NCBI GenBank assembly: GCA_964458565.1
Contig: CAYWJO010000006.1
Span: 1 to 64,000 of the forward strand
Direction of reading: 5' to 3'
Length of the DNA stretch: 64,000 nucleotides
DNA from: an uncultured archaeon
GTDB lineage: Archaea > Asgardarchaeota > Thorarchaeia > Thorarchaeales > Thorarchaeaceae
This document shows positions 22,601 to 40,248 of the stretch, one piece after another. A program made the position numbers and the translations under genes. How positions within the stretch are numbered: position 1 is the stretch's first letter; each line of letters begins with the position of its first letter. Under the pieces are notes generated by a model. That model saw only the letters and a program-made list of their open reading frames with translations. It was not told where the DNA came from and did no database searches.

Positions 22601-22806
22601 TAGGTGGCCAGGCTGCACTTGATGTTCTTCTGGAAATGGTTGATGATGAACGTCCAGAAGTAAGGGTGATAGTGACCAGCTATATTGCTCAGTTCAAGGA
22701 CTCGCGAGTAATTCCTGCTCTAAGAGAACGGCTGAATGATGAGAGTGAAGAGGTTCGGAAAATGGCAGAACAGTGGCTTGGCCATCTGGAAAAGAAAGAA
22801 TCATAG
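19645..22806 (+). CDS. HEAT-repeat (PBS lyase-like) alpha-solenoid protein with an unknown N-terminal domain
   Basis: Numerous LxxxLxDxxxxVRxxAAxALGxxxDxRA repeats. Confidence 0.9.
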   Translation: MKMKFKESLRKALLLEVEDIQDRYGATFEEDGPPEVAIKTKKGGAWLWVNSKADYSGATWDPSTDRLSGDPYSAHVYHDWVGDLKEAPKTIASVDELNSWALLHTRYKRQYTDVGSWGVHSGRWVDDITSEGIVKLRVESKMTFQDVSPVSETTSHEVDLSAFSERSLDILLKLLKDDNPFVREISAKLLGTQRDVKAVGALIETTDDESRYVQAMAIIALGKIGGDEAFGRLKAMLFNDSHHLDLIVKALIELGESILDELVPAFEIENERVPMAFIRILEGIGSNKAISILHQYLSDERISIRARIIKALGQIESSKSIDVLIKGLEDIEPEVQRLAAQALGKLKDKRVVEPLVKALLANYKWVRSDAAKSLEVLGWQPSNSEENIWYIYAKQEWKKLVALGESATEMILRAMDDDDRYVRGELLRPISKAAVPFTDPRIVESIIKIYSDKETMSYRLRDAIKALGNLPILNSTEFLISKYLQDEADSLGLRGVIVDSITDHLISGLAVADTLIHILKKKKIENLTKSQIEIALELFNLIPISHDQIKVIKPWLEWIDEQKYDYKSSTKPIISGLFDLEYLTPDLSNDDIRVREKAIGLISKIKIPSVAFPLIYALEDDNPLIRERAAAALSKLGVGPLSILLTALSNEEAHVRIGAAEALGGIRNARAAKYLLKALRDKHRVVRQNAAWALGELYLAREEYNELRKKIIQALTKRMRTDDYFPVRFNAVYALSRINDSRAVIPLLEAMDNPAVEFRLNASFGFIKMSQVLRKPSKLQSKIIDRLILALSDEVDRVRYNAVDALRMYGGKKALIALTALKNDDDIEMRQLVERSIEEITELGKKERRSWQYSVRTHYELRYPDVIEDYIHLLCDDDESVQLEAQKALGRFGQLAFDRLMEILQDENEVWLKREGAAGALGRVGDKRAVKILIKTLKDDNEMVRCNSAWALAELKDKRSLKALLKATKDKFWMVRVNAAAGVGKLGGQAALDVLLEMVDDERPEVRVIVTSYIAQFKDSRVIPALRERLNDESEEVRKMAEQWLGHLEKKES

Positions 22807-22956: not shown

Positions 22957-23298
22957 TTATTGGGATTCTCTCTCAAGCAACTCATCCGGTATATTCTCTA
23001 AGAGGCTCTTTAATTTCAAGATGTACTTTTGAAAAGACCCTGATCCCGTTGGGGTGATTTCAACGATAATTAATGGTCGCCAAGATATAATTCGACGGTT
23101 TTTCACAAATCCGGCCTCTTCTAGTTTTCTAAGGTGATGATCGAGATTCCCCGGAGTAAGCCCTAATAATTTTGTAAGTTCAAGAAAGCCAACTCGCCTC
23201 TTCAAGAAGAGGAGGTATATTATAGAGAAGCGAGGCTGCGACTGAAAGACCTTTTCCTCTTCAGTTAGTATCAGAGGTTCTTTCAGAGTGATTCCCAC
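22957..23298 (-). CDS. Winged-HTH transcriptional regulator (ArsR/HTH_34-like)
   Basis: FLELTKLLGLTPGNLDHHLRKLEEAGFV...ITPTG. Confidence 0.85.
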   Translation of the reverse strand: MGITLKEPLILTEEEKVFQSQPRFSIIYLLFLKRRVGFLELTKLLGLTPGNLDHHLRKLEEAGFVKNRRIISWRPLIIVEITPTGSGSFQKYILKLKSLLENIPDELLERESQ

Positions 23299-23309
23299 CT
23301 ACGTTGGTC

Positions 23310-23939
23310 CTAATTCGAGCTCTGCAGAGTTGCATTAGCTATTTGATGCATGAAAAGACCTCCTACGATGAAACACATCGAGAAGGCAATAAGCGCTAGA
23401 TATCCGGATAGAACGAGGTCCGTTATGATCAGTAGGGGTAGTGACACTAGTCCTAACATGATTCCAAGGTATAAAATAACCCTCTCTTGGATATGCGAGG
23501 CAGTCAATCTAAGAACGAGATAAGACAAGAGACAGGCAATACTTGCAGCCCAGAGTAATGACACCATTCTGAAAGGGTCCGGAACAAAGTTCAGGAGCGT
23601 AAAACTCACAAACCAAATGATGGCAATTATTGGCCCGTGGCTAGCTCCATTTGATTCTTGGTCAGTCTTCTGTCTCATCGTTCGCCAGGCATTAAAAAAC
23701 AGCGAAGCAACAAGGCCCCAGCAGAGCAGGACTGTTATAATACTCGCAATAAGAAGTAGGAGAGTAGCATCCAAACCCGTGGACAAGGCGAGGATTTGTA
23801 TATTGATATCAATGAATACACCTAGAGGAAATATTATGCCTATGATAATTAGTGCTCTTCCCCAAGCTCGCTGAAAGAGATACTCTTCGTAGCGTTCAAC
23901 AACGCTCAATGCCTCGAGTACCTTGTCGATTGTTTCCAA
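23310..23939 (-). CDS. Six-TM membrane protein, co-transcribed with the HTH regulator
   Basis: Hydrophobic segments; 11 nt upstream of the HTH gene. Confidence 0.75.
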   Translation of the reverse strand: METIDKVLEALSVVERYEEYLFQRAWGRALIIIGIIFPLGVFIDINIQILALSTGLDATLLLLIASIITVLLCWGLVASLFFNAWRTMRQKTDQESNGASHGPIIAIIWFVSFTLLNFVPDPFRMVSLLWAASIACLLSYLVLRLTASHIQERVILYLGIMLGLVSLPLLIITDLVLSGYLALIAFSMCFIVGGLFMHQIANATLQSSN

Positions 23940-23993
23940 TACGAATCACTCCTATCTATATTAGCCATCATACAGGGATAAATGATGACCCTG

Positions 23994-24008
23994 TTCTGTA
24001 CTACAGAA
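23994..24008. promoter_or_regulatory. Palindromic operator candidate
   Basis: TTCTGTA-C-TACAGAA perfect inverted repeat in the divergent gap between the regulator operon and the ABC operon. Confidence 0.55.
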
Positions 24009-24049
24009 TTGTTTCATGTTTTATTTAGACTTGCGTCTTTATTATTACT

Positions 24050-25006
24050 ATGACAGATCTTTCGACTATAGCAATAGACGTAGAAAATGTATCAAAAGGA
24101 TACAATGAAACAGTTGTGTTACGTAGTGTTTCTCTCACGATCAGAAGGGGTGAGTTCTATATCCTGATGGGACCAAATGGATCAGGTAAGAGCACTCTCA
24201 TGTCAATTATCGCTGGTACGAATCATTTCGACTCTGGTTCAGTCAAGATTCTTGGTGATGATATTCTTGAGAAGAAACTACTAGCCAGACAACACATTGG
24301 GTATGTACCTCAGGAGAACTACTGTTCAGCGTTCCTGACTGGAAGAGAGAACCTCAGGTATTTTGCCAGACTATTAGGACTTACAGGTTCGGATTCGAAG
24401 AAGCTCATTGACCATCTCCTAGAGATGATGGAACTGACTGATGCTGCTGATAAGAGGGTTGCAGAATACAGTGGTGGGATGAGAAAGAAACTCGAAGTTG
24501 CCACTGCATTGTTAGGAGATGCTGAAATATTATTACTTGATGAGCCTACAACAGGTCTTGACCCTGGAGTGAGGAAGGAATTTCTCAAACTACTCTGCCG
24601 CATAAACAGGCAGGGAACCACAATCCTACTTGTCACACACATTGGTGAAGATGCTGAGATGGCATCACGAATTGGATTCATGGTTGATGGGTCGATAATT
24701 GCTGAGGACAAGCCAGAATTACTCAAGGAAAAAAGTGGTGTGCAGGGCTCGATAGTTATCAATGCAATTCCCAGAGATCAGAACCTGAGCTTACTGCTTG
24801 CTAGTCTTGATGATGATTGTATTGTGATAGAACACGAGGATGGTTTTGAGATGGCATGTGAGAAAGCAGTTGGATTAATCCCAGTAATCATAGAGGCACT
24901 CAAAGAAGCAGGATATCAGTTGGTCAGTATTGATACCAATCCTCCGAGTCTTGAAGATGTATTCTATCGGTTGACTGAAGTCCTAGTTCGTGGTGATGTG
25001 CAATGA
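24050..25006 (+). CDS. ABC-2 type exporter ATP-binding protein
   Basis: GPNGSGKST, YSGGM, LLLDEPT, VTH; C-terminal PSLEDVF. Confidence 0.95.
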   Translation: MTDLSTIAIDVENVSKGYNETVVLRSVSLTIRRGEFYILMGPNGSGKSTLMSIIAGTNHFDSGSVKILGDDILEKKLLARQHIGYVPQENYCSAFLTGRENLRYFARLLGLTGSDSKKLIDHLLEMMELTDAADKRVAEYSGGMRKKLEVATALLGDAEILLLDEPTTGLDPGVRKEFLKLLCRINRQGTTILLVTHIGEDAEMASRIGFMVDGSIIAEDKPELLKEKSGVQGSIVINAIPRDQNLSLLLASLDDDCIVIEHEDGFEMACEKAVGLIPVIIEALKEAGYQLVSIDTNPPSLEDVFYRLTEVLVRGDVQ

Positions 25007-25779
25007 TATTCATGGAGCAGATTATTGCATCATTCTCCAGGTCAATGAGAATCTTTCTCCGAGACAAGGCAATCTTTGGGTCTTCGATATTCGTCCCCAT
25101 TTTTTTCCTGTTGATTCTCCCCCAAGTTATGTTCTATAATGCACCAGCGGAGGTCATGCCTGGATTGAAAGGATATCTCACAATTGCCATGATAATCCTA
25201 CTCACAATGACAACAGGTATGAGCAATCTTGCAGGATCTATCGCAGGAGATAGAGACCACGACCTATATTCCAAGCTCTCATCAATGCCTATCAGTCCGT
25301 GGTCAGAGAGTATCGGGCGTATTATCACGGTCATTGTCTTTTCGTCAATAGGTAGTATTATCATACTCAGCCTAGGATTACTAACTGGAGCTGAGCTCGT
25401 TGTTGGAATGATTGATCTGCCATTGATAATCTGTGTGTGGTTCTTCATCGTTCTCATAAGTGCAGGTTTCGGTTTCATCATATCGTCCTTTGTGAGAAGT
25501 GAATCAGCAGCATCTCATGTAGGAGTAGCAATAGTTCTGAGCAATTATTTCATCGGGATTGCGGTCCCATATGGAGACCTACCAGAAATGCTCAAGGGAT
25601 TTGCCAGATTCAATCCTATCTCTGCAGGTAACAATATGATAGCCTCAATAGTCTACGGACAGGATTTTGTTGGATATGATCCTTTGATCCTCATTGACTT
25701 GGGGTTGATGTTTATCTTATGTAGTGTAATCTTCGTGATTGGAATGCTACTTTATTCAAGATGTTGCTGGCGAAGGTAG
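25003..25779 (+). CDS. ABC-2 type exporter permease
   Basis: Six TM segments, LPEMLKGFARFNPIS; ATGA overlap with the ATPase gene. Confidence 0.9.
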   Translation: MIFMEQIIASFSRSMRIFLRDKAIFGSSIFVPIFFLLILPQVMFYNAPAEVMPGLKGYLTIAMIILLTMTTGMSNLAGSIAGDRDHDLYSKLSSMPISPWSESIGRIITVIVFSSIGSIIILSLGLLTGAELVVGMIDLPLIICVWFFIVLISAGFGFIISSFVRSESAASHVGVAIVLSNYFIGIAVPYGDLPEMLKGFARFNPISAGNNMIASIVYGQDFVGYDPLILIDLGLMFILCSVIFVIGMLLYSRCCWRR

Positions 25780-26523: not shown

Positions 26524-26973
26524 TCAGACAAAACCGTGCCAGATTCTATAGACCTCCGCCCAGAGGAATGAACAACCTAATGTCCCAAGTACAAGAGCAA
26601 ATACATTGTGTACACCAAAGGAGAAGCTGACAGTAAACATGTAGAAGACAAAGATACCGGTGAAGAAGACTGCGTAAAACACTGTCCGAGGGATTATCTT
26701 CTCCTTTATAAACAAGAAATTATCGAGAAAACCAATATCAGCCTTTGGATGAATTTTGTACTCGCCATGAACACTCTTCTCAAGCAATTCTAGCTCAATT
26801 AGCTTCTCAAGATGATAGAGAGCCACACTTGGACTACTGAGGTCCATATGCCTAGCTAGATCTCTTGGACCAATGAATGTCTTCAAGCCGATGAGAGTCA
26901 CTAGGACCCTCCAGGTTGTTGAGCCCAAGTCCATTATCAGTGGTCGTCCATTTTCTTCATTGCCTTTGTTCAA
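26524..26973 (-). CDS. Membrane-tethered winged-HTH regulator (HTH plus two C-terminal TM), copy A
   Basis: GPRDLARHMDLSSPSVALYHLEKL...GEY; IPR followed by two TM helices; start overlaps the upstream stop. Confidence 0.8.
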   Translation of the reverse strand: MNKGNEENGRPLIMDLGSTTWRVLVTLIGLKTFIGPRDLARHMDLSSPSVALYHLEKLIELELLEKSVHGEYKIHPKADIGFLDNFLFIKEKIIPRTVFYAVFFTGIFVFYMFTVSFSFGVHNVFALVLGTLGCSFLWAEVYRIWHGFV

Positions 26974-28877
26974 TTCGACCCACCAGCTGAATTATCCTTG
27001 ACTGACCTAAATCTATTGTATGTATAAATCAGTAACCCAGCGACTGGGACCATTAAAATCATGTAAGCACCTATTGAAAGTGAGATCACCACACCTAGAT
27101 AATCTGAGTAGAGAATCAGGGATACAAACATGATTAATGGCCCGATCAAACTGTAGAGGAAGGTCAGATTGTTTTTCGGAGGTTCCATAAACGAGCGGAT
27201 TATTAGAATCAGGGGTAACCAAATTGTGAATATTACAGCTGGTAAAAATGGCCAGATAGGAAAATTGACAGGTAGAATTAGACTTCCACCACTTCGTGCA
27301 AAGATAATGAGGAGGGCGACGAAAGCCACGTACTCTATGGTGTAGGTCCCTCCAGCAGTATCAATACTCTGCGAGAGCGTGAACCAAGGTACGAATAGGC
27401 TTCCAACGAGAAAAAGGAATGATACACTAGGTGCATCTCTACCGAGATGTTCCCAGATTTGAATATCGGTGTTACGCCATAGAAGCACAAAACCTGCAAG
27501 AATGATAGCTATAAGGAGTGAGAACACGATGGTTTCGCCTGGTGCCAAAGCCAGACCAAGGAATTCGAAATAGGGAAGTTTGATGTCCATGGTAAGATCC
27601 GTTACGCCATCAACTCCACATTCATAAAATTGGGTGAAATAACTGGAACTGAATAAGTCAGCATCCCATGACGTGACATCTATCAGAAGGTCGCCGTCGA
27701 TAAGAGGAATATAAAGTGAAATTGGAGTTGACTCTACTAGGTGCGAGAAAGAGTAATACCAATAGGAATAACTAACACCATCTTGTGGCGTGATTGTGAC
27801 TCTAGATTGAGGGTCTCGAAATCTCATCAAAATTTGAAGACTAGGCACATTTGGAGATACAACAACGGTCACTTTGATAGTCGGAATCTCAGGTTCTATT
27901 ATCGTTATTGCATTCTCTTCGATGGTAAAGTCTATTGAAGTAGTTGCATTGAACCGAGCTGGGAGGTTCCAACCAGCGGTTCCATTGTATTCTCCAAGAG
28001 GCAGATAGAATGTATCATTTGCTGCTTTGATTATTGCAAGAGAGAAATTGTTGGTGGCATTATTGGTAATGTTGAGAAATGGACTCGGGTTCAGGTAAAT
28101 AGAGTATGGATTTGCATAGATGCTTGTGCCTCTAGTGGTCATTGGATCAATTTGGACTGGAGAGACCTCAGTTGAATATTCAGCTTCAATTCGTACTCCT
28201 TTGACTATGATGGTGCTGGGGGAGAGTGTGATGAGAATGACTCTAAACTCAACTTGTAAAATCCAATCATCTGTTGCATTTCTAATCATATCTAGAGGGG
28301 AGTCTATGCTTAGTGTATCACGCTCATTATCTTCAAAAGACCTCTCAATAGAATAGTGTGTCAAGTCCCAGAGTGTGTTGTTAACGCGTACACTCATCAA
28401 ATCGCCCAATCTTCTGAAGCCTGTATATATTGCAACATCAGTGGTTCCAGATACACTCTCTAATTCGACTGTGAATGACAGACTAGTAAGATTCTGAAAA
28501 CCTACGTTGAGGTCTGTCCTATATGTAGTTTCAGAATGACTCGATGAAATATGTTGCCCATCAGCAGCAATGATTGCCTCGTATTCTGAACGACCTTCAT
28601 GACTGACTACCTGCTGAATCCAATCAATATCACCGGGAAAAGGAGTAACATTGAGGATGCACCCATTGAAAGTACTATCGAGTGATTCGATTCGCGTTGA
28701 ACTCTCTGGGTGCATTGGGATATTATCTGACTCAATCAAACTCACCACAGGTGATGGTGTTGTTGGTACAAAGACAACTATGATAGATCCAAGAACGATG
28801 GATAAGACCAAGCCAAGAAAAATGCTCGTCATTATCTTTTTTGTGAATAGTGATTGCTTCCTTCGCATCTCAGGCAC
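26970..28877 (-). CDS. Membrane protein: N-terminal TM, ~400-aa extracellular beta-rich region, ~6 C-terminal TM; copy A
   Basis: Hydropathy by eye; multiple NxS/T sequons; homologous to 37719-39566. Confidence 0.75.
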   Translation of the reverse strand: MPEMRRKQSLFTKKIMTSIFLGLVLSIVLGSIIVVFVPTTPSPVVSLIESDNIPMHPESSTRIESLDSTFNGCILNVTPFPGDIDWIQQVVSHEGRSEYEAIIAADGQHISSSHSETTYRTDLNVGFQNLTSLSFTVELESVSGTTDVAIYTGFRRLGDLMSVRVNNTLWDLTHYSIERSFEDNERDTLSIDSPLDMIRNATDDWILQVEFRVILITLSPSTIIVKGVRIEAEYSTEVSPVQIDPMTTRGTSIYANPYSIYLNPSPFLNITNNATNNFSLAIIKAANDTFYLPLGEYNGTAGWNLPARFNATTSIDFTIEENAITIIEPEIPTIKVTVVVSPNVPSLQILMRFRDPQSRVTITPQDGVSYSYWYYSFSHLVESTPISLYIPLIDGDLLIDVTSWDADLFSSSYFTQFYECGVDGVTDLTMDIKLPYFEFLGLALAPGETIVFSLLIAIILAGFVLLWRNTDIQIWEHLGRDAPSVSFLFLVGSLFVPWFTLSQSIDTAGGTYTIEYVAFVALLIIFARSGGSLILPVNFPIWPFLPAVIFTIWLPLILIIRSFMEPPKNNLTFLYSLIGPLIMFVSLILYSDYLGVVISLSIGAYMILMVPVAGLLIYTYNRFRSVKDNSAGGSN

Positions 28878-28971
28878 TAAGTATAGACTTAATCAATTCT
28901 TACTTCAATCTACGCCTTAGAACGGTGTTCTGATTTGTAGAACACTAGATAGAACGAGGGTTCCTTGACGT

Positions 28972-29391
28972 TTATTCGCCAATAATTTTGATTAAGACTC
29001 GCTTGTTCCGACGACCATCGAACTCTCCATAGAAGATTGCCTCCCAAGGTCCGAGATCTAATCTACCACTGGTTATAGCAATCACAACTTCACGCCCCAT
29101 GATTTGTCGTTTGTGATGAGCGTCCCCATTGTCTTCGCCAGTCCGGTTGTGTTGATATCGACTGTGTGGTTCGTTGGGGGCGATTTCCTCAAGCCAGCGT
29201 TTATAGTCCGCATGAAGTCCACTTTCATTATCATTAATGAACACACTGGCAGTGATATGCATAGCATTTACCAGACACAGTCCTTCCTGGACACCACTTT
29301 CTGTAACTGCTGCTTCCACTTGAGGGGTTATATGAACAAAGTCCATTCGAGCTGGAACATTGAATGTAAGGTATTTTGTAAGGCTCCTCAT
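28972..29391 (-). CDS. yjbQ: YjbQ/UPF0047 family protein
   Basis: [15 protein letters not shown]...[24 protein letters not shown]. Confidence 0.9.
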
Positions 29392-29643
29392 ACCAGAATG
29401 TATTTGCGGTGTTCCGTAAAAACATTATTGACTTTTCAAATGGGGAATATCCACAAGGTCTCTGAGTGCAGTTCCTAGTATTGGATGATTGGTTTACTTC
29501 AAGGACGCAGAACGCAATATGAGGGGAGTTGTGCAGGGTACCTCTGATTCCATAACAAATCTATCTCTACCAACTGACAAAAGCCTGATTAGGAGGCATC
29601 TGTTTTCATTACTCTCTATTGATATGAAAGAGGTGTCCATCAA

Positions 29644-30501
29644 GTGAAAGGGATTCGTGAACTTGTTTTTCTTGGGACAGGAGTTTCAGCAGGTGTCCCT
29701 GTATGGTTTTGTAATTGCGAAGTATGTGAAGCTGCAAGGATTGATTCAACACAGTACCGAACAAGATCTTCATTGGCACTCCTTGGTGAGGAAACAACCC
29801 TGATAGATGCAGCACCAGACATCTCGTTTCAGTTGAATAGAGAACGGATTCATCGGGTAGATCAAGTTTTCCTGACTCATTGGCACCTGGATCACGTATA
29901 TGGATTGGGATTTCTTGGAGAAGCAGTTATGCTTACGGGATGGAATCCAATTGATGTCTATATACCAGAAGGTGATATACAATACTTCGAGAGGCAAATG
30001 CACTTTATGGAGCGATTTGTCAAAATACATCCCGTACAACCAGGAATGACCATTGAACTTGCAGATGCGACATACGAGGTTGTAAAGACTCAGCATACAG
30101 AAGCTAGTGTAGGATATATTGTGAATTCAGGAAAGAGATTTGCATACTATCTAGATACAGGATATCCCACACCGGAAATGATTGAGCAGTTGACAGATAT
30201 CGACTTCTTGATTGTTGAAGCCACACTGGATTTCATAGAACAGACAGGTGTTTCGTCTGGAATGGATATTAAGAAACTCCATCTTGGTATGGATGATGCC
30301 TACAGGTTATGGAAAGACGTTGGTTGTCCAGAATGCATCTTCACTCACTTTGCATGTCATGGATTCAGGGGTGATATTGGAGATAATCCATTTGTTCAAG
30401 GGTTCACTCACAAAGAGAGATTAGAATATGCAGCGATGAGACCTGGACTAACGATTGCATATGATGGGATGAGAGTTGGCCTCCCTCTAGAATCGAATTA
30501 G
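29644..30501 (+). CDS. Metallo-beta-lactamase-fold hydrolase, PhnP-like
   Basis: FLGTG..GVP..CNCEVC, RTRSS, THWHLDH, DTG, THF. Confidence 0.85.
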   Translation: MKGIRELVFLGTGVSAGVPVWFCNCEVCEAARIDSTQYRTRSSLALLGEETTLIDAAPDISFQLNRERIHRVDQVFLTHWHLDHVYGLGFLGEAVMLTGWNPIDVYIPEGDIQYFERQMHFMERFVKIHPVQPGMTIELADATYEVVKTQHTEASVGYIVNSGKRFAYYLDTGYPTPEMIEQLTDIDFLIVEATLDFIEQTGVSSGMDIKKLHLGMDDAYRLWKDVGCPECIFTHFACHGFRGDIGDNPFVQGFTHKERLEYAAMRPGLTIAYDGMRVGLPLESN

Positions 30502-30612
30502 AAAGAAATTAACTGCATATTCCTAAATTTGAGACACATCAGAAAAACCACTATAAGCAATCTCAATAATAGAAACAATTGCGCCGCCTTCGAGGAACGG
30601 AGGACAAAACAT

Positions 30613-31749
30613 ATGATGAGAGGAACTCCCCGGAGGCAATTCAAGGTTTGCCTTATCGGAGATGGTTTTGTCGGAAAAACAAGTATACGTAGGAAATATT
30701 TGGGAATAGGTTTCAAACGTAGTTACATCCCAACTCTGGGTGTGGATTTTGCCCAGAAAACATTGATGTTTGATAACATCCCAACTAATCTGGTGATTTG
30801 GGATATTGCGGGGCAGGACCAGTTCCAGAGTCTCAGGAAACGGTACTATGATGGTTGTAGAGGAATTATCCTCGTTTACTCCGTGGTAGATCGTGCAGGT
30901 TTTGACAATGCTGTCAAGTGGCTAGTTGAGGCTCATGATTATATGGGGCAGCTACCAGCGTTGATAATCGCTGGAAATAAAATCGACTTAAGACCTACGA
31001 AACCACCTGAGGAAACCGTTTCATATGAGGAAGGCAAAAGATTCACTGAGAATATAGGTACTAAGTTGAACACACCCACCATATTCATTGAGACCTCAGC
31101 TTTGACTGGTGAAAATATCGATGATGCCTTTTCCAAATTGGTCGAGATGATGTTAGATATAGCCATGAAACGACGTACTCCGTCTGAAGAAACAGCACCA
31201 GCAGCAAGTCCTCCTGGAAGCGTCTCATACCAAACACCAACGGTAGATACGAGTGAATCTCAGTCCCCTCAACCAAGCCAACCCTCTGAAGCTAGTGCCA
31301 GCATGAGTACTGCATCTCAAAGCGATGTTGAAAGGCATACCGAGATTACACTAGATCCGATTATTGCATTACCAGCGGATTCGCCATATCTACAAGAGGA
31401 TCAAATCGGAAAAGATATGACAAAGCTTGTCAGCCTTCGCAATGAGCTTAAGATTATTGAACAAGACCTCGCAAATATCACATCGGATATAGAAACAAGT
31501 CTACTGAATCTGAGGAATATTATCCATGTCAAGAGAATCATGTATGAACACCTGAAGAAACAGTTACAGGAAACCAGAAAAGAGTGGGCGGATGCATATG
31601 AAGAATATCTAAAGACAGAGAAACGTAAGAAAGAAGAAATTGGGAAGAAAAGCAAAGAAATCGAACATATTAGAAGTAACATCGATACGATTGGTAAGAG
31701 CATCAGATCTCGTGTAAGTGAATTAGAATTGAAGAAGATGAGAGAGTGA
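30613..31749 (+). CDS. Rab/Ras-family small GTPase fused to an S/P/T-rich linker and a C-terminal coiled coil
   Basis: G1 GDGFVGKTS, G2 YIPTLGVDF, G3 WDIAGQ, G4 NKID, G5 ETSAL; heptad-rich last ~115 aa. Confidence 0.9.
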   Translation: MMRGTPRRQFKVCLIGDGFVGKTSIRRKYLGIGFKRSYIPTLGVDFAQKTLMFDNIPTNLVIWDIAGQDQFQSLRKRYYDGCRGIILVYSVVDRAGFDNAVKWLVEAHDYMGQLPALIIAGNKIDLRPTKPPEETVSYEEGKRFTENIGTKLNTPTIFIETSALTGENIDDAFSKLVEMMLDIAMKRRTPSEETAPAASPPGSVSYQTPTVDTSESQSPQPSQPSEASASMSTASQSDVERHTEITLDPIIALPADSPYLQEDQIGKDMTKLVSLRNELKIIEQDLANITSDIETSLLNLRNIIHVKRIMYEHLKKQLQETRKEWADAYEEYLKTEKRKKEEIGKKSKEIEHIRSNIDTIGKSIRSRVSELELKKMRE

Positions 31750-31856
31750 CTCCTTCCTTCTCCATATAATGTGAACCAGTCAGTTTCTCAACCGCCCAGA
31801 AAGCTTATCAAAGCTCAAACGCAAATAGTGTCACGACTCGGATTGAATGGGAGTAG

Positions 31857-34800
31857 GTGTATGTGGTAAGGTTCCGTTCAATTATATTGTTATCAGTCAT
31901 GATAGTACTGATGGTCCCCACTGTAACCATTGATGCATCTACACTCCAATCAGAGTATTCAGGACCATATGTTGACAAGATTCTGTATAAGGTGATAGAC
32001 AGTGATGATCAGCAAGTTCTCGCTCTTTTAAACAACGAAGTGGACCTCATGGGGGACTGGATGGACCCTGTCCATCGTCTTACGTTGGAAGAAGCAGAAG
32101 ATGTTGAGGTGGTTGAACACCTCCGAAATGGATATGGATACCTCACCATTAACACTGCAAAGAATCCATTCAATTATACAGCATTCAGACGAGCATTTGC
32201 CTTTGCATTAGATAAGGAAGCTGTTGCTGAATCGGTCTGGGATGGTTTGTCTGTCCCCCTAGATTCCTGTATTCCAAGGATGAATCCGTTCTCATGTGAA
32301 GGGTTACTTCCGTACACCTATTACGAGAGCAATATCGAACTGGGAAATGCGTTGCTGGATGATGCGGGTTTTCAAATAGATGGTATGACTGGTTTCAGAA
32401 CCGACCCTCATGGTAATCCATTCAGCGTAATATTGGAGTTTGCCCAACCAGGTAGTACCATAATAGAAGGAATGCAACTTGCTGCTGAAGCATTACAAGC
32501 ACTATATGTGAATGCAACCTCAGAACCAACTGATTTCTACAACTATCTAAATCGGCTATACTTCCATGGTGACTATGATATGGTTTTTCTTGGCGATGAC
32601 TTCGATAACTTTGATGTTGACTGGCTCGCTACCGAGTATTGGTCAGAAACTGTAGATGAGCCATACCATAACTTCCCAAATTGGGTAAACTCTACGTATG
32701 ATAGCTGGAGAGACCAGCTCCTCCATGCAACTGATTTCGAGGATGTCTATGAGGCAGCTTTCAAGATGCAGGAGATCTGGGTCCATGCGTGTCCGATGAT
32801 TATAATGTATCAAAACACATTGCTCTCTGCCTATAGAACTGACAAGTTTGAAGGGTATGTCAATGATGCACTACAAGGCGTAGCAGGTTGGTGGACGAAT
32901 CAGAAAATACACCTTATTGAATCAGATAGAGGGCTCTATGGGGGAACATTTCGTTGGAGTAATCCTCTTGACCTTGATACGTTTAACTTCATGGCAAGTA
33001 CTTCGTCATATACGCAAAACGTGCTCCAGATGCTCTATGACAGTCTCTTCAGGTATGATGCCCAAGGTAATATGATACCTTGGCTTGTTGAATCGTATGA
33101 CATAGAAACAAACGAAGATAATCCAAATGTAGGAGTGGGAAACACGAGATTTTCAATTGAGATAGTGAAAAATGCGACGTGGAGTGATGGTGTGCCTCTT
33201 TCTGCACAAGATGTGGCATACACGTACAATTTCTATCGGGAGGGAGAGGATAATCCATATGGAGAAGATTTGGTTGATCTACTCTCAGCATATGCTCCAA
33301 CAGACTATACATTCATTATAGAGTTTGAGGGTGAATCATATTGGCATATTTCTAAACTTGTGAAACCAATTCTTCCAAAACACTATCTTCTTGATGTCAG
33401 TCCTGAGAATTGGAGTCGATGGGTGCCCGATAATGAGGTTCCAACTCTCGTGACATCTGGACCATTCTATGTTAATGATTATGTTGCGGGTGAATATACC
33501 GAACTTGCAGTCAATGAATATTACTTCAGAAGCACAAGATGGAGAGAGGGTGATGAAAATGACGATGCTTTCAAGATTCTATCGAGTGATGGTATCACCA
33601 AGAATAATCCGATAATTATCGGAGAGATAGCACCTTATGCTGCTTCTGAAGGGCAATCAAGCTTGCAGGGAACATCCAGACAGTTTGTATCAATGGACAT
33701 GGTCGTTGCTGAAGACGAGGATATTAGCCTAACATGGACAGCCAATGACAACCATATACCTTCAGAACTATTCAGTGGAAATATTGTAGATGGAGATCAT
33801 ATCCTTGTAAATGCAAGCTATAATCCGGGCAATGCCTTGAATATGACATTAGATTTTATTTCTGGTATATATTTCAATGAGACACAATCATTAGTAATTC
33901 CGGATTCTTCCTATGACATATTCTCGGGGATGATCGATGAATCACAATATTCATGGATGACTGTCGAAGGAATCAAAGCTGGTGATATCGTTTTCATCAC
34001 TGCAAACTTCACAAATGGCGATAGCGATTTCTTGGCATGGTGGAATGATACCGATAGCTCTACCTGGAGTTACTCAAATAACCTTCTAGGATCGGATATG
34101 AGCTCAGGTGCCAAACCTGAAACCATCTATTTTCAAGCTGAAAGAGACGGAACTCTAAGAGTTGCCTGCTTCTGCTATGACCTCGAACCAGGATTCTGGA
34201 CATTGGTTGTGGATACGCAGTCTATAGTTTCAGTAGAAAACGAAGGTAGTTGGGTAACCTTCGACACGTACGAGTTTGAGAAAAACGTGACTGTCGCTCT
34301 TAGGGTCTCTGGATATAATGAAACTGAACATTATTTCGAAACAGAGTATGATTCCATCAGATTCAACAATTTCTTTGCTCCCGTGGTCGATCTGATTAGC
34401 CCATGGGGAGGGGAAATAGTAAGTGGCATTAAACTGATTCTCTGGGAGGCCACATCAAGAAACATTAATCATGATTTTACACATGAAATATTGATATCAA
34501 ATGACGGGGGACAGAGTTACCAACTTTTTGCGACAGGACTTGTAATAGAAAACAGAGTATGGTATGCTGATAACTGGAAGTTCTCGAATCAGTACATGTT
34601 GATGGTACGAACATATGATAGAGGGATGGTTGGAATAGACGTGACCAATACAACATTCTCTGCTGGAAATCCGGACCTCATTGATACTGAAGCACCTTGC
34701 ATTATTGGAATAGACCAAATGGTAATGGAATATGGGTCAGTCAATAACACACTCGTATGGTTGGTCATTGATTTACATCCTGGTTGGTTCTCAGTTTATG

Positions 34801-35186
34801 TAAATGAACAGTTACAAGTTGCAGCAAATCTATCGTATACTAGAAGTGTATTTGTGGTCAATTGTGACGATTTCGAGGTAGGTGTACACAATGTATTCCT
34901 ATCAGTCGTAGATGAATACGGAAATGCAGCTTCATCATCAGTATGGGTTGGAGTTTTAGGACCTACTTCAACCACTCAAACCTCATGGGAACCAACATCC
35001 ACCACTTCAACCACAACAGTACCGACTTCATCCTCGGTAACAACATCTTACACTACTCATGACACAACAACTCCCACAGGCTTCTGGGAAGGTCTCACCC
35101 AAATGATACTATTAGCAATAACATTTGGTTCTGTAACTATAATTATCGTGTTCTCAGTTCTCATTATCAAAAATAGAAAGAGCTAG
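31857..35186 (+). CDS. Family-5 (Opp/Dpp-like) solute-binding protein, circularly permuted, with extra beta domains, a Thr-rich linker and a TM anchor
   Basis: RRAFAFALD, GGTF...LDTFN, WSDGVPLSAQDV, SGPFY; C-terminal T/S-rich stretch followed by TM. Confidence 0.85.
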   Translation: MYVVRFRSIILLSVMIVLMVPTVTIDASTLQSEYSGPYVDKILYKVIDSDDQQVLALLNNEVDLMGDWMDPVHRLTLEEAEDVEVVEHLRNGYGYLTINTAKNPFNYTAFRRAFAFALDKEAVAESVWDGLSVPLDSCIPRMNPFSCEGLLPYTYYESNIELGNALLDDAGFQIDGMTGFRTDPHGNPFSVILEFAQPGSTIIEGMQLAAEALQALYVNATSEPTDFYNYLNRLYFHGDYDMVFLGDDFDNFDVDWLATEYWSETVDEPYHNFPNWVNSTYDSWRDQLLHATDFEDVYEAAFKMQEIWVHACPMIIMYQNTLLSAYRTDKFEGYVNDALQGVAGWWTNQKIHLIESDRGLYGGTFRWSNPLDLDTFNFMASTSSYTQNVLQMLYDSLFRYDAQGNMIPWLVESYDIETNEDNPNVGVGNTRFSIEIVKNATWSDGVPLSAQDVAYTYNFYREGEDNPYGEDLVDLLSAYAPTDYTFIIEFEGESYWHISKLVKPILPKHYLLDVSPENWSRWVPDNEVPTLVTSGPFYVNDYVAGEYTELAVNEYYFRSTRWREGDENDDAFKILSSDGITKNNPIIIGEIAPYAASEGQSSLQGTSRQFVSMDMVVAEDEDISLTWTANDNHIPSELFSGNIVDGDHILVNASYNPGNALNMTLDFISGIYFNETQSLVIPDSSYDIFSGMIDESQYSWMTVEGIKAGDIVFITANFTNGDSDFLAWWNDTDSSTWSYSNNLLGSDMSSGAKPETIYFQAERDGTLRVACFCYDLEPGFWTLVVDTQSIVSVENEGSWVTFDTYEFEKNVTVALRVSGYNETEHYFETEYDSIRFNNFFAPVVDLISPWGGEIVSGIKLILWEATSRNINHDFTHEILISNDGGQSYQLFATGLVIENRVWYADNWKFSNQYMLMVRTYDRGMVGIDVTNTTFSAGNPDLIDTEAPCIIGIDQMVMEYGSVNNTLVWLVIDLHPGWFSVYVNEQLQVAANLSYTRSVFVVNCDDFEVGVHNVFLSVVDEYGNAASSSVWVGVLGPTSTTQTSWEPTSTTSTTTVPTSSSVTTSYTTHDTTTPTGFWEGLTQMILLAITFGSVTIIIVFSVLIIKNRKS

Positions 35187-35427
35187 AATCGAATGTGATA
35201 ATATAAATTTAAGGGATTTTATTCGAAGACGTGTTGTTTTCAGGAATTGCGACAGGGAGCTTGATACACCGATTAATCAGGAGGCATAGTCACAATCAGA
35301 TATGCACAATATGAAAGCCTATTATAGCAGTTTATCTATACTTAAGAGAACAAATCAGACCAATGGGTGCTCACCCTTTTTATAATTGCACAAACTTGGA
35401 CTGAGATTGTTCGAAGGTGTTCAACAA

Positions 35428-35679
35428 ATGAGAAGAGGCAGTTTGAAGGGTTTCGAGGGGTCTATCACAAGAGTTGTCAAAACAAAAGGATCGCATAGGG
35501 AGTATTTCATAAAGGGAGAGCCAGATACATCGTTCAAGGATGCATTAATCGAGTCATGGCCGTTCATTGATCACAATGACGATGAGAAATGGAAGATTGT
35601 CACTCCATCAGGGGAAGACATCACTGAAAAGACTCTCTCTAGCCACGAAGGGACAGTTATCGTCGAATTTCTCAAGTGA
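35428..35679 (+). CDS. Small hypothetical protein, possible beta-grasp (ubiquitin-like) fold
   Basis: 83 aa; KGEPDTSFKDAL...WKIVTPSGEDITEKTLSSH pattern. Confidence 0.55.
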   Translation: MRRGSLKGFEGSITRVVKTKGSHREYFIKGEPDTSFKDALIESWPFIDHNDDEKWKIVTPSGEDITEKTLSSHEGTVIVEFLK

Positions 35680-35740
35680 CAGTCATTTATAGATTGTCAA
35701 TGATACCAGCTATGCCATTCGGTCGAAAATACCGATGCAT

Positions 35741-36637
35741 CTAATCAGCATACTTTGCAATTCCGTTTGTTAGGACTGATTGACCCGCAGGATTCTTGGT
35801 TTCAAATCGAATCACGTGTTGTCCGTTTTCATCAGTTGCAGCATCATAGACCACGGTAGTAAGCGCCTCTCCCATTAGCACAGGTTTAGAGAAGCGAACC
35901 TTTATGTATCGAAGTCTTTTTGGGTCTCCATCTAGTAGCTCATCCACAATTGTCTGTGATGCAAAAGCCATCGTACAGAGACCATGAAGTATTGAGCTAG
36001 GTAGTCCGACGAATCGGGCTATATCATCGTCGATGTGAATTGGATTGTAATCACCTGAAGCTTCTGCGTATATCTTACCTTGATCAGCCGAAACGATGAT
36101 TGTACGTTCGGCAATTTTCTCGCCATATGATTGGGTTTTCTGCTTCAGTTTTTGCACTTTCTCGTCCTTCTTGACCCCCCTCATCATCAAACGATATTGC
36201 ATCTCAACAAGGGTAACTCCTTCATGTTTACACTCTATATGTAAATCCAATAGCTCATTCACACCACGTTGTTCCATGTTTACAATCTTCGTAGTGGTGA
36301 TAACCTCAGCCCCAGGAAGAATCCTACCCTTCCACCACATCTCCTGTTCTGCATGGACCACACGCAAGAGGTCAAGATTCATATCTTCCGCTTCTTCAGC
36401 GAGTTTGTCAATGATTTCGCGAATAAAGACCACAGGATATAGAGGAGAATGTGACACACCTTCAGGAGATTCTGTGTCATAGTAAAGTGGATTGGTTTCA
36501 TTGGTTGCTCTCGCATATTTAATCATAGACTCTTCTGTTGCAATTTGAACACCACTCGAATATTCCTTACCAATGTAGCTCCTATCTAATTTGGATTCCA
36601 ATCTCAAACCTCCGAAGTACCGAAGTCGGAAATTCAA
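35741..36637 (-). CDS. Double hot-dog MaoC-type (R)-enoyl-CoA hydratase
   Basis: YARATNETNPLY, VVHAEQE, YAEASGDYNPIHID, ILHGLCTMA, VRFSKPV. Confidence 0.9.
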   Translation of the reverse strand: MNFRLRYFGGLRLESKLDRSYIGKEYSSGVQIATEESMIKYARATNETNPLYYDTESPEGVSHSPLYPVVFIREIIDKLAEEAEDMNLDLLRVVHAEQEMWWKGRILPGAEVITTTKIVNMEQRGVNELLDLHIECKHEGVTLVEMQYRLMMRGVKKDEKVQKLKQKTQSYGEKIAERTIIVSADQGKIYAEASGDYNPIHIDDDIARFVGLPSSILHGLCTMAFASQTIVDELLDGDPKRLRYIKVRFSKPVLMGEALTTVVYDAATDENGQHVIRFETKNPAGQSVLTNGIAKYAD

Positions 36638-36747
36638 TTTAACAAGTTTCCATTCTCATACACCTAATCAGTCTATGGGAGCTAAATTATGAACTAAGTC
36701 TATGGAATGGAAACCACTCAGAACTGTTATTATCCAGTTTAATCTAT

Positions 36748-37098
36748 ATGAAAAACAGCGAGGTATTGAAAGTGAGTATTCATGACAAGTACGAGGAAGA
36801 GATGCGAAAAATATGTGAAGAATATTACAAATTGGATAAAGAGAGAGATGCTCTTGAAGAGCAGTTAGAGCATTTGCATGAATATATGGAGATTACCATG
36901 CGTAAATATGACAAGGATGAGTTTGATGATCCCGAAGTCCCTGTCAAAGTGACTAGACTCTCATATACCAGTGAACGAATGAAGAGTGGTGGAAAGGATA
37001 AACTGAAGGAAATCTTGACACAGGAACAATGGTCGGAAATTTATGAGGAGCCTGAGGAGATAGAGCGTATCAGAGTGACTCCACGTAAGATGAAATGA
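36748..37098 (+). CDS. Hypothetical acidic protein with an N-terminal coiled coil
   Basis: Clean ORF with protein-like composition. Confidence 0.65.
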   Translation: MKNSEVLKVSIHDKYEEEMRKICEEYYKLDKERDALEEQLEHLHEYMEITMRKYDKDEFDDPEVPVKVTRLSYTSERMKSGGKDKLKEILTQEQWSEIYEEPEEIERIRVTPRKMK

Positions 37099-37282
37099 TA
37101 TTTCATTACTCGTGAGGTCAGACACTAAGAGGGGAGATGCTGTCACCGGATATATGCATTTTGTGTTTGTTTTCGTTTGCAATTATCAGTCCTAGTGGTA
37201 GTGCTATAATTAATCACAAACTGTCATTCATAGAGCGTGTATGCAGTGATTTCCGAAATGGAAATTTCCAGAATGAACCATT

Positions 37283-37735
37283 CTATTGTATTCCAGACCA
37301 GATTCTATATACCTCCGCCCAGAAGAAGACCACTGAGATTGATCCGATGGTCAGCGCAAAGAGACTATGTATACTATAATCGAATCCAACAAATGTAGCA
37401 TAGAATAGCAACAAGCTTGTAACAATAATTGCGTATACAAATACTCTAGGAATTACCTTAAACCTAACAAAGAGAAAATTGTCGAGAAACCCAAGGTCCG
37501 CGTTAGGGTTCACCTGATATTCACCTGTAGATGTCTTCTCAACTAGATAGTGGTCTTGTAGTTTCTCTAGGTGGTAAAGTGCTACGGTATGACTACTCAT
37601 ACCAAGGCGACGCGCAATTTCCCTTGGTCCAAGAGGTTCTCTAACGGCTAAGAGCTTCATGAGGACTTTCCATGTTGCAGGACCGAGCTCAAAAATGAGA
37701 GGCAGCTCGATATCATCTTCATTCAGAATCATCAA
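37283..37735 (-). CDS. Membrane-tethered winged-HTH regulator, copy B
   Basis: GPREIARRLGMSSHTVALYHLEKL; shares ADxGFLDNFLF, IPR and WAEVYRIW with 26524-26973. Confidence 0.8.
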   Translation of the reverse strand: MMILNEDDIELPLIFELGPATWKVLMKLLAVREPLGPREIARRLGMSSHTVALYHLEKLQDHYLVEKTSTGEYQVNPNADLGFLDNFLFVRFKVIPRVFVYAIIVTSLLLFYATFVGFDYSIHSLFALTIGSISVVFFWAEVYRIWSGIQ

Positions 37736-39566
37736 CCTCTGTCTGCGATAACCTTTCTGTCTTATATGATTTATATCTTAAGAACAATACTTCAAGAACT
37801 ATCACTACAAATGCCAAAAATGCAAGATGCGCCCCAATTTCTGCATTTTGGTTATATGGACCAAAAAACATCAAACCGATTCCACCGATAAAACCCAATA
37901 TTCCTGGAATCGCAGGTGGTAGCAGAGTCTTCAAGTTCAAATCCAGAGACTCATCAAAGAGAACCTGTTTTAAAATGAAAAAGAAAGGTATCCAAAAAAT
38001 CATAATAATCCAAAGAAGAGTGCTGATGTCCGGGATGAGGTGCACCAAAGTTATCCCTGGTATATGAGTGACATACTCTAACCCTAACGCAGGTGTATAG
38101 CTTCTGACGGTGGGATTCTGACCAATGTAAGTGAAAGAGAAACCAAAGCTAGATTGCCAAGGGAGAATATAGCTTGCAAGCAGGAGAGATAGCGAGAGGG
38201 TCCTTCGATTAGTAACCAAAGCCCGCAATGGGATTGGGGACATAGCATGCCGCAGACTAATGATAGATATGACCACTAATCCAATTATAATGACTAGTAT
38301 CAGTAACTGAACTAAATCAAGGCCATAACCAAAGACAAGGAAGATTGGAAAGGTAATCGTTAGCTCGAGATGATTCGTCAACCCGATTTCAAATTCTGAA
38401 CTGAATCTCGGATTTGAGAGACCATTGATCCGTACGGTCACTGAGAATGAGCTCATCCCAGAGGGTAAGATTAGATATGAGGAAAATTCAGTCAGGAAGA
38501 GAATGGAACCAAGATACGAATAGTAAGATGTTTCTGGAAACTTATAGTAGAGGTCAAGTATGATTTGGGTGTTCAAATTCACATCGACATAGAGACGAAC
38601 AATGTCCATCCTGATTTCTACGTACACCTCAGAATCAGGCGTTATATTCAAAATGAAGTCACCCTCTCTCGGATACTCCGCAGAGATATACCATCCATAT
38701 GTTGCAGCATATTCCCCGGGTGGTAAGAAAATGGTTTCATTGATTGTGGAAGGTAAGATGTACGAAGGCTCAGAGTGTGAATCTGAAGTAATATTGACAT
38801 ATGGCGTAAAGATAGACCGTCCATCTAATCTTCCAAAAAATGTGGCATTCTCAGCATCCTTGAAATTGAGTTTCGTTGGAATCAATAATTCAGGAGATAA
38901 AGCCTCCACTCTTGCATCTCTGATTTGTACTATACCAATTTCAGGAAATTGAAGTATTATCTCAAATTTGACATATACAATCCATTCTTGTGTGATTCCC
39001 TTATAATAATCCAAGGGAACTTCAAAATTGAAGATCCCATCATTATCACCCCATGTGATAATCTCCTCTATCTCTGTAAGTGGATTCCAACCCTCTTCAA
39101 ACACCAACCGAATCCCAACTCTGATGGGACCATTAACAGGTCGAACTATGAAAGAGAAATTGACCGTATCATAGTCATCAATCAATATGTTCAGATATCG
39201 ATACATCCTAAAGTCGATATTAGAACCTGACAACTGTATACCATTTGTGCCATTTTCAAAAAGGATTGCGCCTTCCTCATTGTACTTGTTTTGAGAATAG
39301 CGCCATCCAGATGTCATAGAGAAATCATTCGTTCTCAAGAGATTGAATACTGGAGAAATTGTGTAATTCTCATGGAGTATATCAACTCCAGAAGTACCGG
39401 TGATTTCTGCACCTTGATCTACACTGATTGCTTCATAGCTATATCCAGGTGCAACGATCAGGATAACGGATCCAATAACCATGGAGATTATAATTCCAAT
39501 AATTACTCGTTGAACTAATATCTTACGAAACTTTTTTTGATGGGATGAATGTTCTGCGTCGATCAT
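37719..39566 (-). CDS. Membrane protein with a large extracellular region and C-terminal multi-TM domain; copy B
   Basis: NETIFLPPGEYAATYGW vs NDTFYLPLGEYNGTAGW in copy A; same topology. Confidence 0.75.
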   Translation of the reverse strand: MIDAEHSSHQKKFRKILVQRVIIGIIISMVIGSVILIVAPGYSYEAISVDQGAEITGTSGVDILHENYTISPVFNLLRTNDFSMTSGWRYSQNKYNEEGAILFENGTNGIQLSGSNIDFRMYRYLNILIDDYDTVNFSFIVRPVNGPIRVGIRLVFEEGWNPLTEIEEIITWGDNDGIFNFEVPLDYYKGITQEWIVYVKFEIILQFPEIGIVQIRDARVEALSPELLIPTKLNFKDAENATFFGRLDGRSIFTPYVNITSDSHSEPSYILPSTINETIFLPPGEYAATYGWYISAEYPREGDFILNITPDSEVYVEIRMDIVRLYVDVNLNTQIILDLYYKFPETSYYSYLGSILFLTEFSSYLILPSGMSSFSVTVRINGLSNPRFSSEFEIGLTNHLELTITFPIFLVFGYGLDLVQLLILVIIIGLVVISIISLRHAMSPIPLRALVTNRRTLSLSLLLASYILPWQSSFGFSFTYIGQNPTVRSYTPALGLEYVTHIPGITLVHLIPDISTLLWIIMIFWIPFFFILKQVLFDESLDLNLKTLLPPAIPGILGFIGGIGLMFFGPYNQNAEIGAHLAFLAFVVIVLEVLFLRYKSYKTERLSQTEVDDSE

Positions 39567-39699
39567 TTATGTTCATGCTAGTAATAGATGAAAATCGTCT
39601 TTAGTCTAGAGTTTAGACCACCTATCATCATCGAAACTTCTTGTTCTATTCTGTAGTATTATATCCAAATTCGTGTAATTTGATAGCGGAGAACTAAGA

Positions 39700-40248
39700 T
39701 TGAATCAGAAACTCGCTGCATTAGTGCTTATTGTCATATCATTAACTGGTATAGGAGCATTCTCCTTTATTGCACTTAATGCAAATTCACAACAAATCCC
39801 ACCCCCATTTGTACCTTCCACCTACGATATTGAACCAGTATCATCTGGAGCCCTGATTCTTTCAGCTGAAGCAATATTCTGGCTGGATTTCATGCCATCT
39901 GTTCCTGAAGAAGGTCCTCCGTTTTATGTTGTCATAAAAATCAACATTACTAACACAGGTAGCTCGATTATTGGTAATTTCAGCGCACCTCGTACAACAC
40001 TCTATTACAATGGTACTCTAACAGCTTTTGCTACACTCGAACTAGAATCTGCAGTGCAATACTTCAAAGCTGTTGAGGTTGGACCTGGTGAAAGCTTTGT
40101 CATGGAGTTCATAAATGAGAGAAGTACGATTTTCTCACCGTCAGTAGATGAGGGAACGGGGCTGTACGCTAGAATTTTCTTCGTTTGGGAAAATGTGAAT
40201 GGGGTAATCCTAACTTCACCACCTGCAGCTGTAGGTTACACATACTAG
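39700..40248 (+). CDS. Hypothetical N-terminally anchored extracellular Ig-like protein
   Basis: Signal anchor; WLDFMP; INITNTG. Confidence 0.65.
   Translation: MNQKLAALVLIVISLTGIGAFSFIALNANSQQIPPPFVPSTYDIEPVSSGALILSAEAIFWLDFMPSVPEEGPPFYVVIKINITNTGSSIIGNFSAPRTTLYYNGTLTAFATLELESAVQYFKAVEVGPGESFVMEFINERSTIFSPSVDEGTGLYARIFFVWENVNGVILTSPPAAVGYTY

Follow-up and report, generated by a model that had tools for sequence, protein, structure and literature searches.

Transmembrane transcription regulators have been defined as proteins that join a DNA-binding domain to at least one membrane helix (PMC10269533). In the Thermococcales, TFB-RF1 (PF1088) is reported to belong to a self-controlled operon with a small regulon, in which the gene for a membrane protein of four helices, PF1089, is followed by that of the regulator; in Pyrococcus, TFB-RF1 activates this operon from the sequence TCTG-N5-CAGA, just upstream of a weak B recognition element (BRE) (PMC5937170). 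Membrane-bound regulators are known from Sulfolobus (ArnR and ArnR1; PMC6396743) and from bacteria (ToxR/ToxS and VtrA/VtrC; PMC9214523). Here we describe a two-gene cassette, encoding a small membrane-tethered regulator, H, and a large predicted surface protein, L, which is present twice in a 64,000 nt stretch of DNA from an uncultured member of the Thorarchaeaceae (positions 1 to 64,000 of contig CAYWJO010000006.1, assembly GCA_964458565.1; hereafter the window). In the literature library searched, which is incomplete, no paper was found that dealt with the cassette or its operator, or that reported a fold of the claudin type from Asgard archaea; new here are a membrane-tethered, apparently self-regulated two-gene cassette with a predicted operator, a predicted specificity code and an Asgard surface protein with a claudin-like fold.

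A first-pass annotation of this DNA had reported the same gene pair twice, in the same order on the minus strand, and both pairs were found where it placed them:

26524..26973, minus strand: H1, 149 aa; winged helix-turn-helix (wHTH; about residues 15-75) with a C-terminal transmembrane hairpin and a Pro-type recognition helix
26970..28877, minus strand: L1, a predicted 635-aa six-helix surface glycoprotein
37283..37735, minus strand: H2, 150 aa; wHTH and transmembrane hairpin, with a His-type recognition helix
37719..39566, minus strand: L2, a 615-aa paralogue of L1, probably of the same architecture, judging by alignment

The stop and start codons described as overlapping do so in the first pair, by 4 nt, but in the second the overlap extends to 14-17 nt. 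The regulators are well conserved, as had been stated (49% identity over 144 aa); however, L1 and L2, which were thought to share only short blocks, align with 21% identity over 503 aa (E 7.7e-18), and hence are homologous along most of their length. A recent tandem duplication can be ruled out, as the two copies fall in different subclades of both the H and the L trees; the duplication is therefore old, or the copies were acquired separately. Contigs from two salt-marsh DNA runs, which are not marked as the source of the assembly, span the L1/H1 junction at even depth, so this junction is not an assembly artefact.

H1 and H2 lie inside one clade (support 100/100, branch 1.83) of a larger family of wHTH proteins with two transmembrane helices (wHTH-2TM). 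An L gene is adjacent to 22 of the 23 members of this H clade, the remaining one being at a contig end, as against none of the 60 family members outside it. Across the wider family, therefore, such regulators do mostly occur without the large partner, a pattern that the first-pass annotation regarded as contrary to its proposal, whereas within the H clade they do not. The 86 genomes of the same taxonomic family contain 27 H-clade members, spread over 22 genomes and 11 of the 16 genera, of which 25 adjoin L, one lies where its contig ends and one stands beside another gene; this patchy distribution marks the cassette as accessory. Gene order is swapped in several loci, with H preceding L, yet the linkage is kept. 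The L family itself was found in 18 of 26 family genomes and in one other Asgard genome, a word-based homologue search having recovered only two L proteins and genome searches the others. H and L are thus a dedicated, co-inherited unit, a cassette of the Thorarchaeota. Two decaying copies were also seen, one with a broken L and an intact operator but no H nearby (L120:1537-3189), the other with the operator directly before a truncated H, L being missing (L158:2158-2511).

The operator in question is the palindrome TCTA-N5-TAGA, found upstream of L in 16 of the 17 cassettes in which L comes first, compared with a maximum of three in shuffled sequence; one locus (L005) has no good operator, with a matrix score of 7.9, and another (L013) has no upstream sequence. 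A matrix trained on the L-first cassettes located a site in three held-out loci of swapped order (scores of 16.4, 26.7 and 19.5), in each case between H and L, and an additional weak site (10.7) before H at L092. Fifteen of the 16 L-family genes lacking H are without an operator, the other scoring 10.4. The highest-scoring sites of this genome are those before L1 (29.0) and L2 (29.6), the next scoring 16.6, and matches to the motif in other genomes led blind to five further L genes. In the window, the sites are as follows:

28909..28921, no strand assigned: operator 1, TCTA-N5-TAGA palindrome of the T-flank type
28929..28941, no strand assigned: a second, imperfect operator, 20 bp further upstream, or about two helical turns
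39605..39617, no strand assigned: operator 2, the same palindrome of the G-flank type, 38 nt before the L2 start

In most loci 36-40 nt separate the end of the operator from the in-frame start codon; for L1, the likely start is the ATG at 28868, with the operator 40 nt upstream. Downstream of the operator there is a BRE-like purine-rich run followed by an A/T-rich, degenerate TATA zone, and at several loci the operator is preceded by another site, at a distance of 20, 31 or 64 bp. A scan for sigma-70 promoters, which is not suited to archaea, showed nothing. The difference at the start of the recognition helix to which the first-pass annotation drew attention (SSPSV in one copy, SSHTV in the other) was borne out, and it tracks the base flanking the operator core: Pro is found with T in 10 of 10 cassettes and His with G in 11 of 11, with H1 and operator 1 being of the Pro/T type and H2 and operator 2 of the His/G type. 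These paired changes tie the operator to H, and the Pro or His residue may tune each H copy to its own site. A related palindrome precedes 13 of 55 wHTH-2TM members outside the clade, where shuffling gives 0.26. A likely binding motif can thereby be given to the wHTH-2TM family, which is widespread among archaea and has no name.

Divergent from L2 is a further gene, D, preceded by a site of the same class:

39645..39657, no strand assigned: variant site of the operator class, abutting a TATA-like box, 42 nt before D
39700..40248, plus strand: D, a 182-aa membrane-anchored protein with an N-terminal anchor

D occurs in 32 of the 86 family genomes, and many copies have tandem sites of the operator class, 21 bp apart, abutting a clear TATA box. 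Such sites are also present in genomes where the L-linked clade of regulators was not found, and D, which is not an obligatory part of the cassette, is probably under the control of one or other wHTH-2TM protein of the wider family.

By its predicted architecture, H is a transmembrane transcription regulator as that class is defined. Profile matches assign it to the ArsR/Lrs14-like wHTH proteins and no other HTH class was matched; the HTH_20 match of H2 (E 7.4e-6) is just under the curated cut-off. The membrane part consists of two helices connected by a loop of about 6 residues, and only about 20 residues separate the wHTH from the first of them. With neither an extracytoplasmic nor a sensor domain in the 149 residues of H1, any input to H must come through the membrane. 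Within the H clade, helix 1 and the juxtamembrane linker contain near-invariant residues, each present in 21-23 of the 23 members and in none of the 60 proteins outside the clade.

Of the described systems, the one that H would work most like is TFB-RF1, a likeness of layout and motif: in that system, as here, a membrane-protein gene is followed by that of the regulator and a 13-bp palindrome with a 5-bp spacer lies upstream at a conserved distance, and here no second target was found. However, the half-site differs by one base (TCTG-N5-CAGA there, TCTA-N5-TAGA here), H carries a membrane hairpin, and the target is a six-helix glycoprotein of about 620 aa. A second system, about 750 bp from the cassette (22957-25779), matches the gene set and motif of TFB-RF1 more exactly than the cassette itself: a 209-aa membrane gene and a 113-aa soluble wHTH (HTH_34) diverge from an ABC-2 ATPase and permease, with the exact TCTG-N5-CAGA motif at 23995-24007, mirroring the Pyrococcus regulon made up of pf1089/tfb-rf1 and pf1011/1012. 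The three genes remain together in homologous loci, and 10 of the 11 such loci have this motif.

ArnR and ArnR1 share with H an archaeal N-terminal HTH followed by two C-terminal helices, an inverted repeat with a 5-bp spacer and a link to the control of surface structures, but in ArnR HAMP and sensor domains lie between the HTH and the helices, and the box is another one (PMC6396743). Both domains are lacking in H, which comes with a dedicated partner; the missing domains and the different palindrome rule out that H is ArnR. The likeness to ToxR/ToxS suggested by the first-pass annotation holds for the organisation, which these proteins share with VtrA/VtrC: an overlapping two-gene cassette, a membrane-tethered wHTH and a fast-evolving partner, with no kinase (PMC9214523). 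It does not extend to the proteins, as the bacterial regulators have a CadC-like HTH, a single helix and a periplasmic domain paired with a lipocalin-fold partner (PMC9214523), whilst H combines an ArsR/Lrs14-like HTH with a hairpin, lacks an outer domain and has a predicted operator directed at the partner gene itself. On HTH class, helix number and the absence of a periplasmic domain, H is therefore not a member of the ToxR/ToxS group.

The wider wHTH-2TM family has seven copies in this genome, was matched in 89 of 151 Asgard genomes, has further members in Bathyarchaeia and Nitrososphaeria, and forms 646 clusters at 50% identity. All five other paralogues of this genome (contigs C1, C2, C14, C25 and C47) adjoin membrane-anchored extracellular proteins, and a site resembling those of the family lies 31 nt before a 755-aa gene that diverges from the C14 paralogue. 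That the family as a whole sits beside anchored surface proteins was not supported, with 14 of 53 members doing so against a background of 19%. Longer members (P0060, P0092, P0112, P0127 and P0137) have extra N- or C-terminal membrane segments, some of them also a small outer domain; no fusion of H with an L domain was seen among the ten longer homologues scanned.

Sequence and profile searches of L against Pfam, NCBIfam and PDB returned nothing significant, and L matched no known transporter or enzyme family, an identity that would have spoken against the sensor role first envisaged for it; in an atlas search, all feature matches were under 0.9 and the fold search gave TM under 0.41. In the full structural model of L1 (pLDDT 84), the N-terminal helix is followed by three beta domains, one more helix and a domain of four helices:

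28764..28823, minus strand: first transmembrane helix of L1, with a small-xxx-small-xxx-small packing motif
28176..28670, minus strand: residues 70-234, a predicted CBM-like (galactose-binding-domain-like) jelly roll
27579..28166, minus strand: residues 238-433, two predicted all-beta domains, probably an Ig/Cna-B-like stalk
26985..27437, minus strand: residues 481-631, four helices and an extracellular beta sheet, with a claudin/TARP/MP20/DUOXA-like predicted fold

The N-terminal helix and about six C-terminal ones that had been read from the sequence become one and five in the model, six in total, as a hydrophobic stretch at about 510-537 is modelled as a beta hairpin, with no transmembrane helix. 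Sequons are abundant, as had been noted, with 10 in L1 and 7 in L2 against 4.3 and 3.4 in shuffled sequence; across 19 L homologues there are 135 against 54, a 2.5-fold enrichment that supports an outward-facing ectodomain. Residues 70-234 retrieved CBM61 (Z 13.0, rmsd 2.5, 129 residues aligned) and many rows of CBM4/16/22, in a jelly-roll fold that also occurs in Eph and MAM domains. Residues 238-433 were not folded alone and provide weaker evidence, whole-model matches being to SdrD, pilins and prealbumin-like domains. No lipocalin rows appeared in the fold lists for residues 70-234 and 481-631, the stalk having barely been tested on its own. On the model, L is predicted to be an N-glycosylated surface receptor or adhesin.

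When folded alone (pLDDT 89.9), the C-terminal part of L1 gave a fold search in which the top 12 rows were all of the claudin superfamily, with Z from 11.3 down to 9.1, although a Z below about 13 may result from a common arrangement of helices. Claudin-4 aligned best (Z 11.3, rmsd 3.4, 138 residues), and the other top rows included TARPs, MP20, GARLH4 and DUOXA1, the last aligning over 178 residues, extra helix included; Foldseek matched the domain to TARP gamma-2 (E 7.7e-5). The uniformity of these rows and the matching beta sheet speak for the domain having the same fold as claudins, with which, as with MP20, TARP, DUOXA and LHFPL proteins, it shares four helices and an extracellular beta sheet after helix 1, but in L it is fused behind a jelly-roll and Ig-like ectodomain. 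The claudin signature consists of a GLW motif and a cysteine pair in the first loop; the 29 L sequences include none with the former and one with the latter, and no claudin-type profile matched L significantly in the Pfam and PDB searches. Hence residues 481-631 appear claudin-like in fold, and their 6-12% identity to structures of the superfamily neither shows nor excludes common descent. The report of the claudin/TARP fold in the bacterial lipid transporter LetA does not mention archaea (PMC13017536); the domain of L would extend this fold to an Asgard surface protein. L was found nearly exclusively in Thorarchaeota, and so cannot on its own stand for the ancestor of eukaryotes. Some unlinked L-family proteins (L114, L122, L123 and L124) are 750-840 aa long, with three to six extra C-terminal helices; they adjoin a gene that, on reading its N-terminus, we take to be quinolinate-synthase-like.

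We propose that H and L constitute a kinase-free, self-contained loop for one surface protein, with feedback from L to H, a scheme that in its entirety we rate at a little under an even chance. First, a membrane-tethered H dimer would bind TCTA-N5-TAGA before L and control L, and also itself where H is the second gene of the operon; this step is very probably correct. Second, H would activate, as TFB-RF1 does, a sign of control that is favoured, with some reserve, because the site is at a fixed distance just upstream of the BRE-like run and degenerate TATA zone. Third, L would present a glycan-binding-type jelly roll, on an Ig-like stalk, above the claudin/TARP-like membrane domain. Fourth, L would report its state to H by packing of membrane helices, most likely through its first helix, such that ligand binding to L would raise L production. 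This last step, which we think nearly as likely to be right as wrong, is suggested by the lack of any sensor domain in H, by the private membrane-near residues of the H clade, by broken copies having lost their partner and by the first helix of L: three small residues at four-residue spacing are present in 17 of 19 linked L proteins, one of 14 unlinked ones and 14% of background anchors, and in six of six held-out L proteins, some of which are close kin of the training set. Similarity in this helix is 0.23 among linked L proteins and 0.13 between linked and unlinked ones, whereas the soluble and claudin-like domains show no such difference. A predicted complex of L1 residues 434-635 with H1 (score 0.00, mark 0.32), from which the first helix was left out, was not used as evidence.

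Several observations weigh against this scheme. The L and H trees match (Mantel rho 0.54), but linked genes are co-inherited anyway, so this is no proof of contact. That the linked L proteins arose only once is not rejected (p-AU 0.35), and the first-helix motif may hence be one event; the His/G change, too, is probably a single evolutionary event. Before D, the related site and the BRE position overlap, an arrangement in keeping with repression. Relatives without L also conserve the transmembrane hairpin of H, and at least 15 L-family genes are without H, five of which (L107-L110 and L117) come directly after the gene of a different, soluble HTH protein, some 155 aa long, that shows no relationship to H outside its HTH. 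At one locus (L174:1871-3597), the operator comes after an H-clade regulator and before a 286-aa membrane gene, which is unrelated to L and next to which is a 99-aa fragment similar to the H hairpin; H there appears to drive this other gene via the same operator. These last cases would also fit one-way control, with H sensing the state of the membrane, proteolysis or another partner, and L being a mere effector, such as an adhesin or envelope protein, that never touches H. The operator evidence fits this alternative equally well; members of the wider family work without L, beside other anchored surface proteins with a related palindrome, and ArnR shows that surface structures can be under a membrane regulator with two helices (PMC6396743). 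One-way control is accordingly a serious competitor, albeit less probable than feedback, since it does not explain why the first-helix motif is restricted to linked L proteins, why the H clade has juxtamembrane residues of its own or why so small a protein has no sensor domain.

The plain form of the first-pass proposal, in which L is a variable sensor and H relays its signal to other, unlinked genes, as ToxR does, accords with the fast evolution of L (median identity 19%) beside a conserved H (49%), and with the related site before D; weak sites, moreover, could be missed. However, nine of the 16 exact motif matches in eight other genomes are at L genes, and the other seven do not exceed the 10 found with a reversed pattern as control, whilst in this genome a relaxed pattern matched 24 promoters against 25 in the control; the D sites, as described above, also occur where the L-linked clade was not found. 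We consider such a distal regulon improbable. With the only recurring operator lying before L and no other target found, L is the output gene, and the direction of information first suggested, from L to the regulator, is not supported in its original form. That L is instead a LetA-like protein handling lipids or small molecules, regulated by H in response to membrane composition, is more improbable still: LetA shares the claudin/TARP fold but contains the domain twice, along with zinc ribbons, and has an MCE partner (PMC13017536), whereas L has one domain and no conserved partner transporter gene was seen near it, and LetA came only in row 13 of the fold search (Z 7.9, rmsd 5.1, 130 residues aligned), outscored by eukaryotic claudins and TARPs.

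Returning to the H-L loop with feedback, a stronger version of it, in which the membrane domain of L is truly homologous to that of eukaryotic claudin/TARP/DUOXA proteins and L gates a membrane-tethered transcription factor by helix packing, is unlikely; if true, Asgard archaea would have a glycan-responsive, two-protein loop from receptor to promoter, and the role of claudin-fold proteins as regulatory partners of other membrane proteins would have a precedent among archaea. The cassette offers four elements that can be tested without culture, namely the regulator, its predicted site of 13 bp, the residue predicted to set specificity and the one target, and gives the wHTH-2TM family a likely motif.

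Other genes in the window, as read from the sequence, encode a 1053-aa HEAT-repeat protein (19645-22806) and a Rab-like small GTPase that continues into a low-complexity linker and ends in a coiled coil (30529-31749). Between the two cassettes (31857-35186) lies a gene for a 1109-aa family-5 solute-binding-like protein with a C-terminal anchor.

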